In this document: positions 232-9,115 of the stretch, piece after piece | How positions within the stretch are numbered: the stretch's first letter is position 1 | How the letters are laid out: every line of letters starts with the position of its first letter | Origin: Candidatus Bathyarchaeota archaeon | GTDB taxonomy: Archaea; Thermoproteota; Bathyarchaeia; Bathyarchaeales; Bathycorpusculaceae | Length of the DNA stretch: 28,542 bases | Reading direction: 5' to 3' | NCBI GenBank assembly: GCA_030628925.1 | Contig: DAOVQA010000001.1 | Span: 1-28,542, forward strand | The notes under the pieces: model-generated | What the model was told of the DNA's origin: nothing | Databases searched by the model: none | The model's input: the letters and a program-made list of their open reading frames with translations, nothing else | Made by a program: the position numbers and the translations under genes

Positions 232-675
232 CTAGGCTTTAGGAATAAATCTTTCCGCAATCTCTCTTCCAAACTTCCTGCACTTTTCAAGTCCAGCCTG
301 GTCCGGGGTATATTTAATCAGAAGCGGAGATTCGATCACGTCCATACCAAACTTGTGTTTCATGATCTCAAGAACCAACCGTGGTGCTTCACCACTCCAC
401 CCGTAAGAACCAAAAGCCGCCCCAATCTTATCTTTTAAGTCAATGTTTTTCACCGTGACTTCCTCGAAAAGCTTCTTCATGTCAACAGTCATGTCATGAT
501 GATAGGTCGGGATTCCAATTATTATAGCATCGAAATTCGTTAGCTCCTCTGGTGTGGCGTAGTACTTCACTTCAACTTCTACTCCCGAAATGGTTCTGGC
601 TCCTTCTGCAACCGCTCTAGCCATCTTCTGCGTGTTTCCAGTTCGACTATAATAAAGAATAAGGATTTTTGCCAT
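232..675 (-). CDS. Stand-alone flavodoxin (FprA C-terminal-like)
   Basis: FMN phosphate loop YYSRTGNTQKMA, GIPTY and GSYGWSGEA motifs. Confidence 0.93.
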   Translation of the reverse strand: MAKILILYYSRTGNTQKMARAVAEGARTISGVEVEVKYYATPEELTNFDAIIIGIPTYHHDMTVDMKKLFEEVTVKNIDLKDKIGAAFGSYGWSGEAPRLVLEIMKHKFGMDVIESPLLIKYTPDQAGLEKCRKFGREIAERFIPKA

Positions 676-692
676 AAAGACCCTCCACGTGA

Positions 693-1217
693 TTATGCAG
701 GGCTCTCCTCAGAAGTTGCTGGCGGCACAAATACCCGCGTCGCAAGTTCTTTGTCAATCATGAACAATCCGTTGCCTTCTTTTCCAACCAGTTTCAATGT
801 GGCAATAATGTCATTGTCGTTTGCTTCTTCCTCGATCTGCTCGGTGATGAACCATTGTAGAAAGATCTTTGTAGCATGGTCCTTCTGGTCAATCGCAAGG
901 TTAACAAGGTCATTGATGCACTTGGTCACAAACTTCTCGTGCTCCAAAGTCTTCTCAAAAATCTCCAAGGGAGAACCAAACTCCATTGGCGGCTGTTCAA
1001 CAGCCATAAGCTTAACCTGTCCCCCCTGATTGTTGATGTAATCATAGATTTTCATGGCATGAGTCATCTCTTCCTGATACTGAACCATAAACCAGTTGGC
1101 AAACCCCTTCAATCCTTTGAACGTGCTGTCAGCAGACATGGATAGATATAGATACGCTGAATAAATCTCCCTGTTGATCTGTTTATTTAGAGCCTCCGTC
1201 ATTCTCTCACTTAACAC
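693..1217 (-). CDS. ftnA: Non-heme ferritin
   Basis: Ferroxidase-centre motifs REIYSAYLY, QEEMTHA, EHEKFVT and QIEEE; 174 aa. Confidence 0.96.
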   Translation of the reverse strand: MLSERMTEALNKQINREIYSAYLYLSMSADSTFKGLKGFANWFMVQYQEEMTHAMKIYDYINNQGGQVKLMAVEQPPMEFGSPLEIFEKTLEHEKFVTKCINDLVNLAIDQKDHATKIFLQWFITEQIEEEANDNDIIATLKLVGKEGNGLFMIDKELATRVFVPPATSEESPA

Positions 1218-1232
1218 GCTATCACCTCCCCT

Positions 1233-2420
1233 TCAATCTACTAGGTTGTGCTGTTTATGCCTATTTAAAATATCATCAGCAAGTTTGTCTAGTGCCCTGA
1301 AATCATCTTCCCTCGGAAAGCCTTTTATGACAACAGGTTCAAGTAACTCAACCTTTAAGTTAGACAGCATCCCCGTGATTTGTTCCACCATTCTGCCACC
1401 CCAGCCATAAGATCCTATTATTGACGCAAACTTCACCTTCGGCCTTAAGGCATTTGCAAGATAGGCCGCATAAACAACATTTGGATGCGGTCCAACTAAG
1501 ACTGTAGGGGAACCTATTACGATTGTAGCAGCATCCACCAAGGCCATTGCCAATTTTCCAATGTCTGTTCCAGCTAAGTCAAACTGCTTCACGGTTACGC
1601 CTTTTTCGACTAAAACACCAACAAAGTATTCCACCATCTTCTTAGTACTACCGTGCATTGAAATATAAGGCAATACAACGATGTTTTTAGGCGGAGCGTA
1701 AGCCCAATCCCTGTATGCTTGAAGTATAAACTCTGGGTTATCATAGATGGGGCCGTGGCTGGGTGCTATCACGTCTATTTGCAAATCTTTTATTTTCTCT
1801 AAATTCTTCTGAATTACTGTTCTAAAAGGCATCATGATTTCTGCGTAATACCTTTTTGCCGCCTCGTAGACTGTTGCTTCATCAGTAACATACAAGTCAG
1901 ACGTTGCAAAATGGGAACCAAACAAATCGCAGGTGAAAAGCATTTTATCTTCTCTTAAGTATGTGAGCATTGTCTCTGGCCAATGAACCCAAGGAGCATG
2001 GATAAACTCTAACGTTTTATTCCCTAATGACAGTGTTCCCCTATCTTCTACAGGCTTGATTTTGCTTTCAGAGATTAGAAGCAAGTCCATGAGCAGATTT
2101 TTACATTTAGGTGTTGCAACGACCATCGCGTCTGGATATACCTTCAATATTTGAGGCAGTGCTCCTGAATGGTCTTGTTCCGCATGATTTGCAACTACAT
2201 AATCTATTGTTTTAACGTCCAGCTGACTCAGGTTGTTTATCAATTCATTTGCCATAGTTGGATCAACAGTGTCTATCAAAGCCGTTTTTTCACTGCCCTT
2301 AATTAGATAAGCGTTATAACTTGTCCCATCAGGAAGCGGAATAAGTTCATCAAAAAGTCGCCTATCCCAATCAACCGCTCCAACCCAGTAAACATCTTTT
2401 TTTAATTTTCTTGGTTTCAT
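1233..2420 (-). CDS. fprA: Flavodiiron protein (FprA / A-type flavoprotein)
   Basis: GTSYNAYLI, diiron motif NHAEQDHSG, HWPET, CDLFGSH, PSHG and a C-terminal flavodoxin domain with GSYGWGG. Confidence 0.96.
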   Translation of the reverse strand: MKPRKLKKDVYWVGAVDWDRRLFDELIPLPDGTSYNAYLIKGSEKTALIDTVDPTMANELINNLSQLDVKTIDYVVANHAEQDHSGALPQILKVYPDAMVVATPKCKNLLMDLLLISESKIKPVEDRGTLSLGNKTLEFIHAPWVHWPETMLTYLREDKMLFTCDLFGSHFATSDLYVTDEATVYEAAKRYYAEIMMPFRTVIQKNLEKIKDLQIDVIAPSHGPIYDNPEFILQAYRDWAYAPPKNIVVLPYISMHGSTKKMVEYFVGVLVEKGVTVKQFDLAGTDIGKLAMALVDAATIVIGSPTVLVGPHPNVVYAAYLANALRPKVKFASIIGSYGWGGRMVEQITGMLSNLKVELLEPVVIKGFPREDDFRALDKLADDILNRHKQHNLVD

Positions 2421-2421
2421 T

Positions 2422-2583
2422 TTATTCTACCTTTTCAAACTGATCTTTTGTTGCTCCGCAAAGTGGGCAGACCCAGTCATCCGGTAGTTCTTCAAACGGA
2501 GTTACCGGTTTTACGCCAGAGTCAGAATCACCCTTTTCCGGGTCGTATATATACCCACAAACAACACATTTGTATTTAGCCAT
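2422..2583 (-). CDS. Rubredoxin
   Basis: [10 protein letters not shown]...WVCPLCGA. The start is placed at ATG 2583 (MAKYK), preceded by a GTAGGTGA RBS, rather than at 2613. Confidence 0.96.
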
Positions 2584-2609
2584 TTTTTCACCTACATTCA
2601 CTTGACGTA

Positions 2610-3026
2610 TCATTCTTTTACATGCTTTAGATTATAGCTTATTTTCACGCCGGCCTGCTCGAAAAGTTTTCCAACTGGACAGTTTTTACGAGTTAGTTCA
2701 AAGATTCTATGAATTCTATTCTCGCTAACATCGCTTTTCACGGTTATGTTAAATTCTGCAGAGGCTATTGTGCCAGTTTCTTCCGATTTTTTGGCGCGTA
2801 GCTCAACTTCCAAGTCCTTCAGTTGAATTCTCATCTTCTTTGCAGTCAACGAAAAAATGGTGGCAAAACATCCAGAGAAGCTCATAACTCCAAGCTCTAA
2901 GGCGGTAGGCCCCATGTCTGTGCCAAGTTCGGCTGGTAGATCCAAACAAAGGCTGTGAGCTCTTCCATTATCAACCGCCACCCTTAAATCCTTTATCAGT
3001 TTAGCCTTCGAAGTTATAACAGCCAA
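2610..3026 (-). CDS. OsmC/Ohr/YcaO-like (OsmC family) protein
   Basis: GPTALEL...SGCFAT and KNCPVG two-cysteine pattern; TTG start. Confidence 0.88.
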
Positions 3027-3084
3027 TCACTTAACATCCTTCTTATTTTGTTATCTTATAGACTATATTATCAAAAAGGGGAAA

Positions 3085-3741
3085 TTACGGTGGAAGTTTC
3101 TTCTTGCACAGGAACCAGTCTACGCATTCATAGCCTTCCTGTAAACGTTTTTCTGCTGCTTCCTGTGTTGCTGGTGGAGGAACTATTACGTCGTCTCCTG
3201 GGCGCCAATTTGCTGGAGCAGCCACTTTGTATTTGTCAGCAGTTTGCAAAGCATCTACGAGTCTTAAAATTTCCTGCATGTTCCTGCCAACATTTAGCGG
3301 GTAGTAAATCATGGCTCTTAGTTTCATTTCAGGATCAATTACAAAGACGCATCTGACGGCTGCGGTTGTGCTTTCGCTTGGGTGTATCATGCCGAAAAGA
3401 TTAGCAACTTTCATGTCCAAATCAGCTATTACTGGAAATGGTATTGTTATTCCAAACTTTTCTTTAATTTTTCTTGTCCAAGCAATATGCGAGAAGACGC
3501 TGTCGATGCTTAATCCTATTAGCTTCACGTTCCTTTTCAGCAATTCATCGCTTATCCTAGCGAACGCAACAAATTCTGTTGTACAAACTGGAGTAAAATC
3601 TGCAGGATGAGAAAACAGAATAACCCATTTCCCCTTGAAATCTGAAAGCCTTATTTTTCCATGAGTGGTAACTGCCTCAAAGTCTGGAACAGTTTCACCT
3701 AATCGCAAGAACGGTTTCTTCTCTTCAACTTTCTCTTCCAT
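3085..3741 (-). CDS. Peroxiredoxin (Prx6/archaeal type)
   Basis: [12 protein letters not shown] peroxidatic motif, YYPLNVGRN and C-terminal CVDWFLC. Likely start is ATG 3741. Confidence 0.96.
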
Positions 3742-3795
3742 TTTCCACACCTTTCATTCATATTTTAGGAACAAAATATTTTTATCTCAGAGCTT

Positions 3796-3810
3796 CTTAT
3801 ATATTTTTCG
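3796..3810 (-). promoter_or_regulatory. BRE-TATA promoter of the peroxiredoxin operon
   Basis: Minus strand reads CGAAAAA-TATATAAG about 55 bp upstream of the prx start. Confidence 0.65.
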
Positions 3811-3823
3811 TAGGATATTCGAC

Positions 3824-3840
3824 GATAAAAGGATAAATAA
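3824..3840 (+). promoter_or_regulatory. BRE-TATA promoter of the Lrp/Ptr2-like gene (probably leaderless)
   Basis: GATAAAAGG-ATAAATA at 3833-3839, 27 bp before the ATG. The ATAAATA box recurs upstream of other genes in the window (6909, 13345, 20889 on the minus strand). Confidence 0.55.
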
Positions 3841-3865
3841 GTACTAAAATAGGAAAACAATAACC

Positions 3866-4300
3866 ATGGTTGAAGTTGACGCATTAGACTTGAAGATTCT
3901 GAAAATGCTTCAAGAAAATGGAAGACATTCATTCACAGAAATGGCAGGAAAACTAAGGTTAAGCGAATCAACAATCAGAAAAAGGGTTCAATCGCTCCAA
4001 AAGAAGGAGATTATAAAGAAATTCACCGTCGAGATCGACCCATCTAAAATAGGGATTCGTACTACCGCGATAGTTGGAGTTGACGTAGATCCAACGGAGC
4101 TTTTGGAGACAGCTCAAAAGCTCTGTGAAATAAAAGAGATTCGCTCAGTAGCTATATCAACGGGCGACCACATGATTATGACGGAAATATGGACTAGGGA
4201 TGGGCGAGAACTCACAAGGCTGATTTCCGAAAAAATTGGAGCAATTGAGGGTGTTAAAAAAATCTGCCCAGCAATAATATTGGAAAAGCTAAAAAGTTGA
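3866..4300 (+). CDS. ptr2: Lrp/AsnC family transcription factor, Ptr2-like
   Basis: N-terminal HTH (LSESTIRKRV) plus a RAM domain. The segments STGDHMIMTEIW.RDG and KIG.IEG.KKICPAIILE match, from memory, Methanocaldococcus jannaschii Ptr2; orthology needs confirming by alignment. Confidence 0.85.
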   Translation: MVEVDALDLKILKMLQENGRHSFTEMAGKLRLSESTIRKRVQSLQKKEIIKKFTVEIDPSKIGIRTTAIVGVDVDPTELLETAQKLCEIKEIRSVAISTGDHMIMTEIWTRDGRELTRLISEKIGAIEGVKKICPAIILEKLKS

Positions 4301-4316
4301 GTCTAACACACAAAAA

Positions 4317-6476
4317 TCAGGGCTTCCATCTTTTTAGCAGCATTGAGTTTCCAACAACTGTGATGTCGCTGAGTATCATCGTTGCCGCAGCGATTTCAGG
4401 TCTAACCAAAATACCGAGAGATGGATAGAGAACGCCTGCGGCTAACGGAATTGTTAGCATGTTATAGAAGAATGCCCAGAACAGGTTTTGTTTTATCTTC
4501 TGCAATGTCTTCTTGCTTAGGCTAATGCTTACTGCCACATCTCGTGGGTCGGCTTTGACTAGAACTATGTCTCCAGCTTCTATGGCAATATCTGTTCCGC
4601 CGCCAATGGCGATTCCTACGTTTGCTTGAGTGATTGCTGGTGCGTCATTTATTCCGTCGCCTACCATGGTAACGAATCTTCCTTCATTTTGCAGCTTCCT
4701 TATTTGCTCAACTTTTTCAGCTGGAAGAACCTCGGCTAAGACTTCATTGATGCCCAGCTGCTTTGCGATGGCTTCAGCTGTTCTTCTTGTGTCACCTGTA
4801 AGCATGACGACTTTTAGTCCCATCTTCTGAAGCCTTTCCACAGCGACTTTAGAGTGTTCTTTAATAGTGTCAGAAACAGCCAACAGTCCAACTGCTTTTC
4901 CGTCAGTAGCCACGATTAATACGGTTTTACCTTCTTTTTCCAGTCTCTCAATGTGGTCCTCTAACTTCTCTACTGCCACTTTACGGTTTCTCATTAATGC
5001 ACGGTTTCCAAGCAAGATATTCTTCCGTTCGAACTTTACCGTCACACCAAGTCCAGGCAATGCCTCAAAAGAATTTGGTTCAAGGACCTCAATTCCTTCA
5101 CTTTCAGCTTTTTTAACAATTGCTTCGCCAACTGGATGCTCAGACCTTTTCTCTGCAACAGCAGCGATTTTCAAAACGTGTTGCTTGTCTTCAGCGACAA
5201 TGTCTGTGATTTCCAACTCGCCTTTAGTCAATGTGCCAGTCTTGTCGAAAACAACAGTGTCAATTTTTTTCACAACCTCCAGCACTGCACTGTTTTTAAT
5301 CAGAACCCCATTTTCTGCTCCCTTGCCAACGCCAATCATGATTGCGGCAGGTGTTGCTATGCCTAAGGCGCATGGACAAGCGATTACCAAGACAGAAACG
5401 AGAGTAGTTAAGGCTAGTATTTCATTCTGAAAGAAGGAGAACCAAATCGCAAATGCTCCAACAGCAATAACGATAACTATAGGAACGAAAAAGTTAACAA
5501 CTTTATCAGCGAGCCTTTGGATCGGTGCCTTACTTGCCTGCACTTCACGGGTCAACCTCACAATCTGAGCTAGAGTTGTTTCCTTTCCAACCTTCACTGC
5601 CCCAAACTTCAAAGTGCCAGCTTTGTTAACCGTTCCACCAAAAACGGTGTCTCCAACGTTCTTCTCAACTGGAACAGATTCACCAGTTATCATTGATTCA
5701 TCTATGAACGAATGTCCTTTGACTACAACGCCGTCAACAGGAATTTTTTCTCCAGGTCTAACGATCACAATGTCGTTGACCTCAACTTCTTCAACTGAAA
5801 CTTCTCTCTCGCTTCCATCCTGCACTATAATAGCGGTTTTAGGTTGAAGCTCCATAAGTTTCTTAATTGTTTCTCCGGTTTTTTCAACAGCCATCTCTTC
5901 TAATAGCATGCCGAGAGTTATAGTAGTGATCACAACGGCTGAAGCTTCGTAAAAAACTGGGGCGTTAATGAAGACTGTTGAGAACAATGAATAAAAATAA
6001 GCGGCTGAAGCGCTTAAGGCGACAAGCACGTTCATGTCGGCAAACCTGTTTTTAAGTGAATTGTACGCGCCTTTGTAGAAGTGCCACCCTACGATAAACT
6101 GGATTGGAGTTGTTAGAACCAACAACAGAAGATTCTTTTCAGGGAAAAACAGAAAATATGTAATGGCAACTATTGGAATTGTTAGGGCAAGCCCAAAAAA
6201 GAAAAGCATCAACTTTCTCTTCATTACTTTCCTGCGCCTGTCAGCAGACAGGCCTTCTACTTGTTCCACAGCTTCGTATCCAGTTCTCTTAACAGTTGTC
6301 TTTATCTTTTCAATGTTTGTCTTGTCCGAATTGAATCTTACAATGACTTCTTTGGACGCGAAATTCACTTTGGCTTCTGTGATTCCGTCAAGTTTTGATA
6401 AATTATTTTCAATTCGTTGTGCGCATGCGGGGCAGTGCATCCCAAGGATTTGAAGGATAACTTCTTGCTCTTTCAT
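4317..6476 (-). CDS. copA: Heavy-metal P1B-type ATPase, Cu(I)-exporter type
   Basis: N-terminal HMA domain (GMHCPAC), TGES, CPC (IACPCALG), DKTGT, HP, GDGIND, TM YN and MxxS motifs. Confidence 0.93.
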
Positions 6477-6874
6477 TTACGAGACCTTCTAACCGTTATT
6501 AATTGGCAAATTCCGCATTTTTCAATGTCTATTGTTGGGTCAAATGCTTTATGCAATTTGCACATTAAGCCTTTTTCTCTAATTGTACTGCAGATTTCGC
6601 AAAACATAGAGATGAAGTCTTTAAGCGGTAAGTTTCCTTTGGCTAAGGATGCTGCTAGGTTTTCTATCAAGTTTGTAATATCACTTTCGTTTTTCAAATC
6701 AATTGCTTTTCCACGCTTCTTTCTGAAGTAGAGACTTATGGCGGGTTGACTGACTCCGAGAAGCTTGGCTGTTTCCACTTGTTTTAGTTTATGTTTTGTC
6801 ATGAGTTCTTCGGCTATCATGGCTCGAACTGCAGGTAATACGCATTTTACTGCAACTTCGCAAGGAACCAACAT
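6473..6874 (-). CDS. Cys-rich archaeal HTH transcriptional regulator (COG2522-like)
   Basis: PCE..VK.VLPAVRA N-terminus, HTH ([18 protein letters not shown]) and C-terminal CxxC-x9-CxxH...CxxC. Overlaps the copA start by 4 nt. Confidence 0.85.
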
Positions 6875-6920
6875 TAAGATACACTTCAGTTATAGTTTGC
6901 AGAAACGCATAAATAAAAGT

Positions 6921-6936
6921 TATTACAATTGTAATA
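6921..6936. promoter_or_regulatory. Perfect 16-bp palindrome TATTACAATTGTAATA, candidate operator between divergent promoters
   Basis: Exact inverted repeat read from the sequence, immediately downstream of the ATAAATA box (6909-6915) in the 86-bp divergent gap. Confidence 0.7.
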
Positions 6937-6961
6937 TTAAACAAGTAATTGGCGATTAAAA

Positions 6962-8185
6962 ATGATGGAAAATAAGAAGAACATGCTGAGAGAACTGATC
7001 AAGCAGTTACATGCTGGGGTGTCACCGTTAGAAGTTAAGGAAAGGTTTAAACAAGTTTTGGAGGGTGTAACCCCTTTAGAAATCAGCAAGATTGAACAAG
7101 AGCTCATTGAGGAAGGAATGCCCAGAGAGGAAATTCAAAGGTTATGCGACGTTCACCTAGCCGTTTTCAGGGAACAACTAGACAAACAAAAACTGGACAT
7201 TCCTGTTGGACATCCAATCAGCATTCTCATGGAAGAGCATAAGATTATGTTGCGACTTGCAGAAAAACTTGAAGCCATTGCTAATAAGGTTCAACAAGCC
7301 AGCGACATAAGTTACGTCAGCGACGAAATACATAGTCTCGAACATATAGCAGAAGACTTTCAGGACTCAGAAAAACACTATTTGCGAGAAGAAAACGTGC
7401 TTTTCCCTGTTCTGGAAAAACATGGGATCACAGGGCCACCTTCAATAATGTGGACGGAGCACAGCCAGATTAGAGAGAAAAAGAAGGAACTTCACAATAT
7501 AACTGAAAACCTTGACACTCTAAAATTTCAAGATTTTAAGGATCAACTGGGTGACATCGCTGGAGCTTTAGGCACCCTTCTTTCGAGTCATTTTTTCAAG
7601 GAGAGTAACATACTTTTTCCTACAGCTTTACAAGTGATTACAGACAATCAGTGGAAAGAAATTAGAAAGGAATTCGATGAAATTGGATATTGTTGTTTTA
7701 CGCCCACACAGGTGATTGCAATGCGAACCGAAGAAGTTAAAAAGCAAAAAATTGAAGAAGCAATTGAGGCTGAAGGGATGTTACAGTTTGAAACTGGTTC
7801 TCTTTCGAAAGAGGAAGTTGAGGCTGTCTTAGATTCGCTTCCAGTTGACATATCATTTATCGACAAAGAAGACCGTGTAAAATACTTCAACAAGGCTGAG
7901 AAAAGAATTTTTGTTCGAACAAAGGCGGTTATCGGAAGAAAAGTGCAACTATGCCATCCACAGAAAAGCGTTCACATTGTTAATAATATCCTTGAAGCGT
8001 TCAAAACAGGCAAGAAAGATGTAGCGGAATTCTGGATTAATCTGAATAGTCGTCTAATTCACATAAGATACTTCGCAGTAAGAGACAAAAACGGAAAATA
8101 TTTGGGAACTACAGAAGTAACACAAGATATAACTGACATCAAAAAAATCAAAGGACAAAAAAGACTCCTGGACTGGAAAACCTAG
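6962..8185 (+). CDS. DUF438 + hemerythrin-like + PAS_10 domain protein
   Basis: N-terminal LCDVH (DUF438), hemerythrin-like EEH / HYLREENVLFP / EH / HFFKESNILFP, and C-terminal PAS with GRKVQLCHPQKS. Confidence 0.9.
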   Translation: MMENKKNMLRELIKQLHAGVSPLEVKERFKQVLEGVTPLEISKIEQELIEEGMPREEIQRLCDVHLAVFREQLDKQKLDIPVGHPISILMEEHKIMLRLAEKLEAIANKVQQASDISYVSDEIHSLEHIAEDFQDSEKHYLREENVLFPVLEKHGITGPPSIMWTEHSQIREKKKELHNITENLDTLKFQDFKDQLGDIAGALGTLLSSHFFKESNILFPTALQVITDNQWKEIRKEFDEIGYCCFTPTQVIAMRTEEVKKQKIEEAIEAEGMLQFETGSLSKEEVEAVLDSLPVDISFIDKEDRVKYFNKAEKRIFVRTKAVIGRKVQLCHPQKSVHIVNNILEAFKTGKKDVAEFWINLNSRLIHIRYFAVRDKNGKYLGTTEVTQDITDIKKIKGQKRLLDWKT

Positions 8186-8609: not shown

Positions 8610-8934
8610 CAGTGCAAAAGGAGTGATGAAATCTTGGAAAACCAGATGTCTCAAAGTCCACTTTACAATATTCCGACATTGGAAGGGTACAATGGAATAT
8701 CACCGCACCCGCGATCTCCTGTACGTAAAGCAGATCCTTGGACACAAAAGCATCCAGAACACAATGATATATATCCAATATGAAAAAGCACTCTTTGGAA
8801 CACCGGTGAATGAGGAGTTTACAGTCAAAGTCGCCACAAACATACAAGAAGCATACGCGCTTGCAGAAGTCAGCTTCGAATAGGTCACCGGAGAATACAA
8901 TGACGGCGGCAAAATCTTCAGGAAACAAAAATAA
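8610..8934 (+). pseudogene. Decayed tyrosine recombinase/integrase (C-terminal remnant)
   Basis: Reads ...FRHWKGTMEYHRTRDLLYVKQILGHKSIQNTMIY (RH, LGH and catalytic Tyr retained; the His of HxxR reads as Thr). After the in-frame TAG at 8881-8883 the frame continues VTGEYNDGGKIFRKQK* to 8934, resembling the usual integrase tail. No N-terminal half is recognisable. Confidence 0.85.
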
Positions 8935-9013: not shown

Positions 9014-9115
9014 GCTCCGGTAGAAGAGTTTAATCAGCTCTACCGAATATAGCCCGGTTAAGTATTCCGGCCTTTCGAGCCGAAGACCCGGGTTCGAATC
9101 CCGGCCGGAGCACCA
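9014..9115 (+). tRNA. tRNA-Glu(UUC) with a 24-nt intron (9024-9047) between positions 10 and 11; CCA encoded
   Basis: Spliced sequence GCTCCGG TA GTA TAGCCCGGTTAAG TAT T CCGGC CTTTCGA GCCGA AGAC CCGGG TTCGAAT CCCGG CCGGAGC A CCA folds as a cloverleaf; anticodon TTC at 9074-9076; one C27-A43 mismatch. The intron forms a bulge-helix-bulge-type motif. Confidence 0.93.

Follow-up and report, generated by a model that had tools for sequence, protein, structure and literature searches.

Analysis of a 28,542-nt stretch of DNA from a Bathyarchaeia archaeon (contig DAOVQA010000001.1; this whole stretch is referred to as the window) revealed a gene encoding a cysteine-rich putative transcriptional regulator. 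The gene is positioned directly upstream of copA, which encodes a copper-exporting ATPase, and in an orientation opposite that of a gene encoding a DUF438-hemerythrin-PAS protein. The source genome is a metagenome-assembled genome (MAG) from cold-seep or marine sediment and is 79% complete. Comparison of the locus with its orthologues indicated that regulation under redox stress, not dedicated copper sensing, is the probable role of the protein. The explanation that we favor, with confidence slightly better than even, is that it acts as a local autorepressor of O2- and nitric oxide (NO)-stress genes that senses through cysteine-bound metal sites, and that copA was recruited to it secondarily. 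The features of the locus are as follows.

Positions 4317 to 6476, minus strand: copA, Cu(I)-type P1B ATPase with one N-terminal HMA domain (TIGR01511, Pfam).
Positions 6473 to 6874, minus strand: regulator gene, an open reading frame (ORF) of 133 amino acids (aa) with an N-terminal helix bearing a C5-E6 motif, a helix-turn-helix (HTH) and a C-terminal helical domain.
Positions 6909 to 6919, minus strand: CTTTTATTTAT, TATA-like box 1 nt away from the palindrome, in the regulator-copA promoter; its role as a TATA box is predicted.
Positions 6921 to 6936, no strand: TATTACAATTGTAATA, candidate operator, a 16-bp perfect palindrome (arms TATTAC and GTAATA around AATT) with the core TTAC/GTAA 4 bp apart.
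Positions 6932 to 6942, plus strand: TAATATTAAAC, candidate TATA-like stretch for the DUF438-hemerythrin gene; it overlaps the palindrome in its right arm.
Positions 6962 to 8185, plus strand: divergent partner, a DUF438, hemerythrin and PAS_10 protein of 407 aa (Pfam).

The regulator gene and the divergent gene are separated by 87 nt (about 100 nt in relatives). This gap contains the perfect palindrome described in the initial annotation, 46 nt from the ATG of the regulator and 25 nt from that of the divergent gene. Each feature observed in the initial annotation was confirmed. A perfect palindrome of at least 16 bp was found in 42% of first-order Markov simulations of the 42%-GC window, and its chance rarity was therefore dropped as an argument. 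What makes the palindrome significant is where it lies and that it is conserved in all 56 orthologous loci. These loci were taken from GTDB species representatives, and the neighbor counts given below refer to the window plus the 56 loci (57). Related genomes are non-independent samples, and the counts are descriptive rather than statistical tests; most of the genomes are MAGs, so that a gene that was not found is not necessarily absent.

The initial annotation had allowed that the palindrome might not be conserved. A motif search upstream of the orthologues found T[T/G/A]AC-N4-GTAA 57 to 63 nt before the regulator start (75 nt in one locus) in all 56 loci, with a perfect TTAC-N4-GTAA in 38 of them; only eight other matches to TTAC-N4-GTAA occurred in 592 kb of flanking DNA. 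An earlier set of 26 orthologous loci from 60 relatives had the site at the equivalent place. In the anchored conservation profile, the information content of the palindrome equals that of the TATA-like box, which in the 56 loci is seen as a conserved block, gTATATTTATgcCTTTC, immediately after the palindrome. The Freyarchaeia and Jordarchaeia loci carry the operator variant TTAC-TATA-GTAA at the equivalent place. In five loci belonging to a paralogous subfamily, the corresponding position is occupied by another palindrome, ATGACAYACGTCAT. This fits a site that coevolves with its protein, each regulator recognizing its own promoter. The paralogues with the ATGACAYACGTCAT operator (loci L027 to L031) are divergent from a gene for a Cys-rich protein of 330 to 405 aa with two or three winged-helix domains (TrmB/HTH_45-like), and the two proteins could form a regulator pair.

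A symmetrized position weight matrix (PWM) derived from the 56 sites gave the palindrome as the sole strong match in its own genome (score of 26.9; next best, 13.1). The exact operator is unique in this genome, and each of five near-complete relatives has the operator once. A pattern search of the same genome with up to two mismatches returned 10 matches, versus 6 for the control. A wider regulon extending past the local gene pair was rejected because no second strong PWM site was present in the genome.

The palindrome lies 1 nt from the TATA-like box and 25 nt from the divergent start, so that a bound dimer should block both promoters. In the proposed mechanism, a dimeric HTH transcription factor would bind the two half-sites of TATTAC-N4-GTAATA, the centers of which are about one helical turn apart. 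The single site would stand back to back between two divergent core promoters. The bound dimer would overlap the region of the transcription factor B (TFB) recognition element (BRE) and the TATA box of both promoters and would block initiation at each, so that the regulator would repress its own operon (regulator-copA in the genus of the window) together with the divergent DUF438-hemerythrin-PAS gene. If TAATATTAAAC serves the divergent gene, its distance of about 25 nt from the ATG would mean that the mRNA is leaderless or has a very short leader. Control of both directions from one site, as first annotated, is upheld to the extent that the palindrome is a conserved operator-like site suitably placed for both divergent promoters, and the binding itself is a prediction. 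The comparison establishes the conserved operator, the local regulon of one site, the conserved ligands and the gene neighborhoods; repression instead of activation, which is deduced from the geometry, the nature of the metal and the signal are inferences.

Analysis of the gene neighborhoods pointed to the signal. Divergent from the regulator, upstream of it, the following arrangements were found.

33 of 57 loci: flavodiiron protein gene, then DUF438-hemerythrin-PAS gene, with a 4-nt overlap.
7 of 57 loci: DUF438-hemerythrin gene directly.
8 of 57 loci: small Zn-ribbon gene and/or ferredoxin gene.
7 of 57 loci: other genes.
2 of 57 loci: contig end.

Downstream of the regulator, on the same strand, three neighbors recur.

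21 of 57 loci: DUF2096.
6 of 57 loci: FTR1 iron permease.
4 of 57 loci: copA.

The 4-nt overlap of the flavodiiron and DUF438-hemerythrin-PAS genes indicates an operon. In 40 of the 57 loci, a DUF438-hemerythrin gene lies no more than 2.6 kb upstream of the regulator. The hemerythrin part of the 407-aa protein in the window shows weak likeness to the di-iron Fe-S repair protein YtfE/RIC (NCBIfam YtfE E value of 7e-8, below the cut-off). In Freyarchaeia and Jordarchaeia (Asgard archaea; proteins 70 to 75% identical), a Zn-ribbon gene is followed by genes for a hybrid-cluster protein and a cupin, and in the Freyarchaeia loci a ferredoxin gene stands in between. In other Thermoproteota loci, genes for superoxide reductase, rubrerythrin and peroxiredoxin (named from their sequences) are close by. 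The window itself is a stress island, with genes for a flavodoxin, a ferritin, a flavodiiron paralogue, OsmC and a peroxiredoxin within 6 kb.

The set of enzymes that remove O2 or NO or repair iron centers is controlled in bacteria by NsrR and NorR. Since the conserved targets belong to this set, oxidative or nitrosative stress is the most likely signal, and one Cys site would read it. Damage to the site or its oxidation, by O2, reactive oxygen species or NO, would release the protein from the DNA and so derepress the genes; the site would be either an Fe-S cluster or a Zn-thiolate switch. The ancestral targets would have been the flavodiiron protein, the DUF438-hemerythrin protein, and ferredoxin with the hybrid-cluster protein. 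Placement of copA behind the regulator in one genus-level clade would then have made copper export inducible by the same stress signal, along with the hemerythrin gene.

The FTR1 gene directly after the regulator in six loci brings in an alternative that we regard as unlikely, namely, a sensor of iron or Fe-S status like IscR or RirA. A cluster on the protein would report the supply of iron or clusters, and its loss would derepress the FTR1 permease, the di-iron proteins and copA, the last of which would protect clusters from Cu(I). The targets are all iron proteins, a ferritin is encoded in the window, and up to eight Cys/His ligands are available for a cluster. Against this, the FTR1 linkage (6 of 57) is as patchy as that of copA, and no suf or isc cluster-assembly genes adjoined any locus inspected. 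This alternative also overlaps with the redox-stress regulator favored here, and the two are not separable at the level of sequence.

Some further neighbors were recorded. The commonest downstream context is DUF2096 followed by SMC-ScpA (21 of 57 loci), and several Bathyarchaeia loci (L038, positions 5453 to 6001; L048; L072) have a DUF6448 gene after the regulator or after FTR1. In the window, a short ORF with a C-terminal tyrosine recombinase motif (positions 8623 to 8883, plus strand; Phage_integrase, 20 bits, below the cut-off) lies about 150 nt from a tRNA-Glu gene (positions 9037 to 9115, plus strand). The stress/copA block at positions 232 to 8185 may therefore lie at the edge of an old integrated element.

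The sensing function proposed above depends on the Cys/His ligands of the regulator, for which the evidence is ligand conservation and covariation. As first annotated, the 133-aa ORF contains seven cysteines (C5, C11, C92, C95, C105, C120 and C123) and a histidine (H108), arranged in a PCE motif, a CxxC motif (C92/C95), a CxxH motif (C105/H108) and a second CxxC motif (C120/C123). The HTH covers approximately residues 32 to 50. Among 125 diverse members of the family, E6 is kept in 98% and P14 in 100%, and both are invariant in alignment A1. The residues of putative site A, C105, H108 (sometimes Cys), C120 and C123, are almost always kept. Those of putative site B, C5 and C92 and often C95, disappear together across the family, and this joint loss points to two sites. 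C11 is present in 57 of 57 orthologues versus 4% of the wider family, which indicates that site B has four cysteines in the C11-bearing subfamily. In the model, the C-terminal helical domain and the N-terminal cysteines would hold the two metal sites, A (C105, H108, C120 and C123) and B (C5, C92 and C95, plus C11 in the C11-bearing subfamily), and either an Fe-S cluster or Zn would be compatible with these ligands. A ninth cysteine, about nine residues past C123, is present in 47 of the 57 orthologues and missing in all four that are linked to copA. With regard to the eight core ligands, orthologues with and without a copA link do not differ.

Relatives fused to ThiN or TusA retain nearly the whole Cys module despite having ligand domains of their own. 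This fact supports a different division of labor, to which we give little credence: the Cys sites would be purely structural Zn sites, and the DUF438-hemerythrin-PAS protein would sense O2 or NO at its di-iron site and modulate the regulator by contact. That protein has sensor-type domains without an output domain. Its gene is linked in 40 of 57 loci and, in the genus of the window, has remained next to the regulator, whereas the flavodiiron gene has not. However, no DUF438 gene lies near the regulator in the eight Zn-ribbon/ferredoxin loci or in the Asgard loci, and in the closest complete genome the partner gene is reduced to the PAS domain. The presence of the subfamily-specific C11 in 57 of 57 orthologues likewise suggests that the Cys site itself has a function. 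The reduced partner of the closest complete genome (G001; locus L105, positions 4164 to 4568, plus strand) is a divergent gene for a 135-aa protein consisting of PAS_10 alone, without DUF438 and hemerythrin.

The link between the regulator and copA was analyzed in the same loci. The copA product scored 618.9 bits against TIGR01511 (cut-off of 397). The 4-nt overlap reported in the initial annotation is present: the TGA stop codon of the regulator (6475 to 6473) and the ATG of copA (6476 to 6474) share the sequence ATGA, and copA is thus probably cotranscribed with the regulator. In contrast to what a copper sensor would lead one to expect, 53 of the 57 orthologues are not followed by copA. The linkage is confined to one genus-level clade of four (L045 to L047 and the window; bootstrap values of 98/91). 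In locus L108 (positions 3675 to 3845, minus strand; contig C123 of genome G048, from another family of the order), the last approximately 57 codons of the regulator stand directly before a 75%-identical copA. This sequence is 61% identical to the regulator, retains the CxxC, CxxH and CxxC motifs, and is preceded by an in-frame TAG; it is what decay has left of a regulator-copA operon in that family. Other close copA orthologues (73 to 84% identical) are preceded by genes for a thioredoxin-fold protein or a DUF166 protein. The single clade and the unrelated genes before other copA orthologues show that the regulator-copA operon is a derived, local arrangement.

A dedicated copper sensor, which had been the leading proposal for this gene, would bind Cu(I) at its thiolate site or sites, leave the operator, and induce copA, like CsoR or CopY. 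We consider it the least credible of the explanations discussed here, at perhaps an outside chance. The operon coupled by ATGA is found in all four members of the genus clade, and sites of three and four cysteines bind Cu(I) well as a matter of general chemistry. As was noted from the start for the window, genes for TRASH-domain CopR/CopT regulators (PF08394), CsoR (PF02583) or a free HMA/CopZ protein were not found, and this result extends to the whole 79%-complete genome. The operator is also the only strong site in the genome, which leaves copA without another obvious regulator, and the copA clade has lost the C-terminal cysteine. On the other side, the copA clade does not differ from other orthologues in the operator or in the eight ligands, the conserved partners are O2/NO enzymes and not copper genes, and close copA orthologues elsewhere follow unrelated genes. 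The copper proposal thus gives way to the other possibility raised with it, an Fe-S or Zn site perturbed by O2 or NO, which fits the conserved neighbors. The concern that the linkage to copA might be unique to this genome proved nearly justified, as the linkage amounts to one genus clade of four and one decayed remnant.

The neighboring Lrp-type gene was considered as a regulator of copA. It encodes an AsnC ligand domain without TRASH and is an unlikely candidate, since it is positioned tail to tail with copA and is divergent from a peroxiredoxin gene. An Lrp gene adjoins copA in G024, in G001 and in the window. In G024 (locus L109, positions 380 to 3660), an Lrp/AsnC gene and a gene for a thioredoxin-fold protein (220 aa, two CxxC motifs) precede a 73%-identical copA on the same strand, beside OsmC. 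Contigs from two public cold-seep runs (X10 and X13) depart from the window at about position 4319, just past the 3' end of copA, which suggests a strain-level rearrangement at the copA/Lrp junction.

The regulator, deduced from its ORF, belongs to a family that has members in Bathyarchaeia, other Thermoproteota and Asgard archaea and comprises 1247 clusters at 50% identity (E value of 0.001 or lower), with members mostly of 120 to 140 aa. The nearest Pfam or other curated family is DUF483 (PF04467), which is present in Methanocaldococcus jannaschii and Sulfolobus acidocaldarius. The match covers regulator residues 9 to 118 and profile positions 12 to 118 of 122, with 24.4 bits against a cut-off of 25 (E value of 3.2e-5); it scored 23.8 bits in the genome-wide profile search. 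The regulator is a borderline DUF483 relative, below formal membership. Only 7 of 119 relatives match DUF483 at an E value of 0.001 or lower, and together with the score below the cut-off this places the family largely outside current Pfam coverage. The XRE-type profile HTH_3 (PF01381) gave 21.9 bits for the regulator (cut-off of 23) and matched 86 of the 119 aligned relatives at an E value of 0.001 or lower.

An AlphaFold2 model of the regulator, built from 119 sequences, is all-helical, with a predicted local distance difference test score (pLDDT) of 94.8 and a predicted template modeling score (pTM) of 0.88. Comparison with the PDB by Foldseek and VIA-align matched the HTH part alone, the best matches being the HTHs of DeoR/SorC and ParB/KorB (Z scores of 6 to 7.6). 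A sequence search of the PDB with the regulator found nothing below an E value of 0.49, and there is no solved structure for the family. The matching AlphaFold DB clusters are just unnamed archaeal "transcriptional regulators." Literature searches on DUF483, COG2522 and DUF438 found nothing relevant, and no study of stand-alone family proteins was found. A second regulator-like stretch in the same genome (G000, contig C128, positions 4462 to 4680; locus L002, positions 1500 to 1720) is 36% identical over residues 37 to 109 and contains one internal TGA; without an intact ORF, this decayed fragment is probably a pseudogene.

Comparison with known systems revealed likenesses in genomic logic and in architecture. 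The archaeal regulator MsvR has a winged-helix DNA-binding domain and is not known outside methanogens; in Methanothermobacter thermautotrophicus, the oxidative-stress operon is reportedly divergent from msvR and includes the flavodiiron gene fpaA. A published account (PMC3729527) describes MsvR of M. thermautotrophicus and Methanosarcina acetivorans as a homodimeric, Cys-dependent, redox-sensitive regulator with a V4R sensor domain. Its target is an inverted repeat located in the msvR promoter, and an oxidative-stress operon is under its control in M. thermautotrophicus. This logic matches that of the relatives of the regulator, with a palindrome in their own promoter (56 of 56 loci) and a divergent flavodiiron operon (33 of 57). 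The families are, however, unrelated: the regulator has an XRE/ParB-like HTH and a helical CxxC/CxxH/CxxC domain and a different operator, and no V4R or ArsR-type match was found for it in Pfam at an E value of 0.1 or lower.

A second comparison concerns ThiR, reportedly described by Rodionov et al. in 2017 (cited in PMC10746257) as an archaeal HTH-ThiN regulator of thiamine genes. Relatives of 320 to 344 aa (P0143, P0185, P0201 and P0226) carry ThiN (PF10120) and have the architecture of ThiR, of which they are putative counterparts. They share the whole N-terminal 125-aa module with the regulator at 32 to 40% identity, including C5, E6, P14, the HTH and all six C-terminal ligands. In alignment A2, which combines fused and stand-alone proteins, E6, P14, Q32, G40, Q43, Y49, C95, C105, H108, C120 and C123 are invariant. 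Unlike ThiR, the regulator ends at residue 133 without ThiN, has the subfamily-specific C11, and is a neighbor of stress genes and not of thiamine genes.

The predicted function is analogous to that of NsrR and IscR, bacterial Fe-S regulators of the Rrf2 family, which have a winged-helix domain with a C-terminal three-Cys cluster site. Among the genes under NsrR control are hcp and those for the di-iron repair protein YtfE/RIC and for NO-detoxifying enzymes, and the relatives of the regulator are neighbors of the hybrid-cluster protein, a RIC-like hemerythrin and the flavodiiron protein. There is no relation in sequence or fold, and an Fe-S cluster in the regulator is a candidate only; no Rrf2 match was found for the regulator at an E value of 0.1 or lower, and its PDB fold matches are at the level of the HTH. 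With CsoR, CopY and the archaeal CopR/CopT it shares a thiolate-rich protein and, in the genus of the window, an operon with copA. It differs from CsoR and CopR/CopT in that the copA link is confined to one clade and in that it has no CsoR (PF02583) or TRASH (PF08394) match. Structural kinship with CsoR/FrmR/CstR was rejected, as helix overlaps with Z scores of 5 to 6 are within the noise for helical models.

Five points weigh against a repressor of O2/NO-stress genes that senses through its cysteines. A site next to the BRE and TATA box could recruit TFB and activate transcription. The predicted regulon in this genome is the regulator-copA operon and the hemerythrin gene alone, and copper is therefore a possible relevant signal here. 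The loss of the C-terminal cysteine in the copA clade hints at altered chemistry. Given the fused relatives that carry the Cys module, both Cys sites may be structural, with the signal read in another way. Finally, among the public runs checked for transcripts, the only one labeled as RNA-Seq that contains the locus behaves as DNA contigs and is probably DNA.

The locus provides a concrete regulator-operator pair, with a defined 16-bp candidate site and defined candidate ligand residues, that is testable with recombinant protein. It is an example of a metal-export gene recruited into an existing stress regulon, and it cautions that the signal of a regulator should not be read from the gene order of one genome. 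To our knowledge, almost nothing is known about O2 and NO sensing in uncultured anaerobic archaea such as Bathyarchaeia and Asgard archaea. More tentatively, and with considerable doubt, the family may represent a large group of archaeal transcription factors, the stand-alone members of which are apparently unstudied, with an HTH and two Cys/His metal sites. Its C11 subfamily may be an archaeal counterpart of NsrR/IscR, an Fe-S or Zn-thiolate sensor of O2 or NO that was rewired to copper export in the genus of the window. If so, the C11 subfamily would control the flavodiiron protein, the hybrid-cluster protein and the RIC-like hemerythrin from a single operator, and the rewired switch would link redox stress to copper toxicity in sulfidic sediments.

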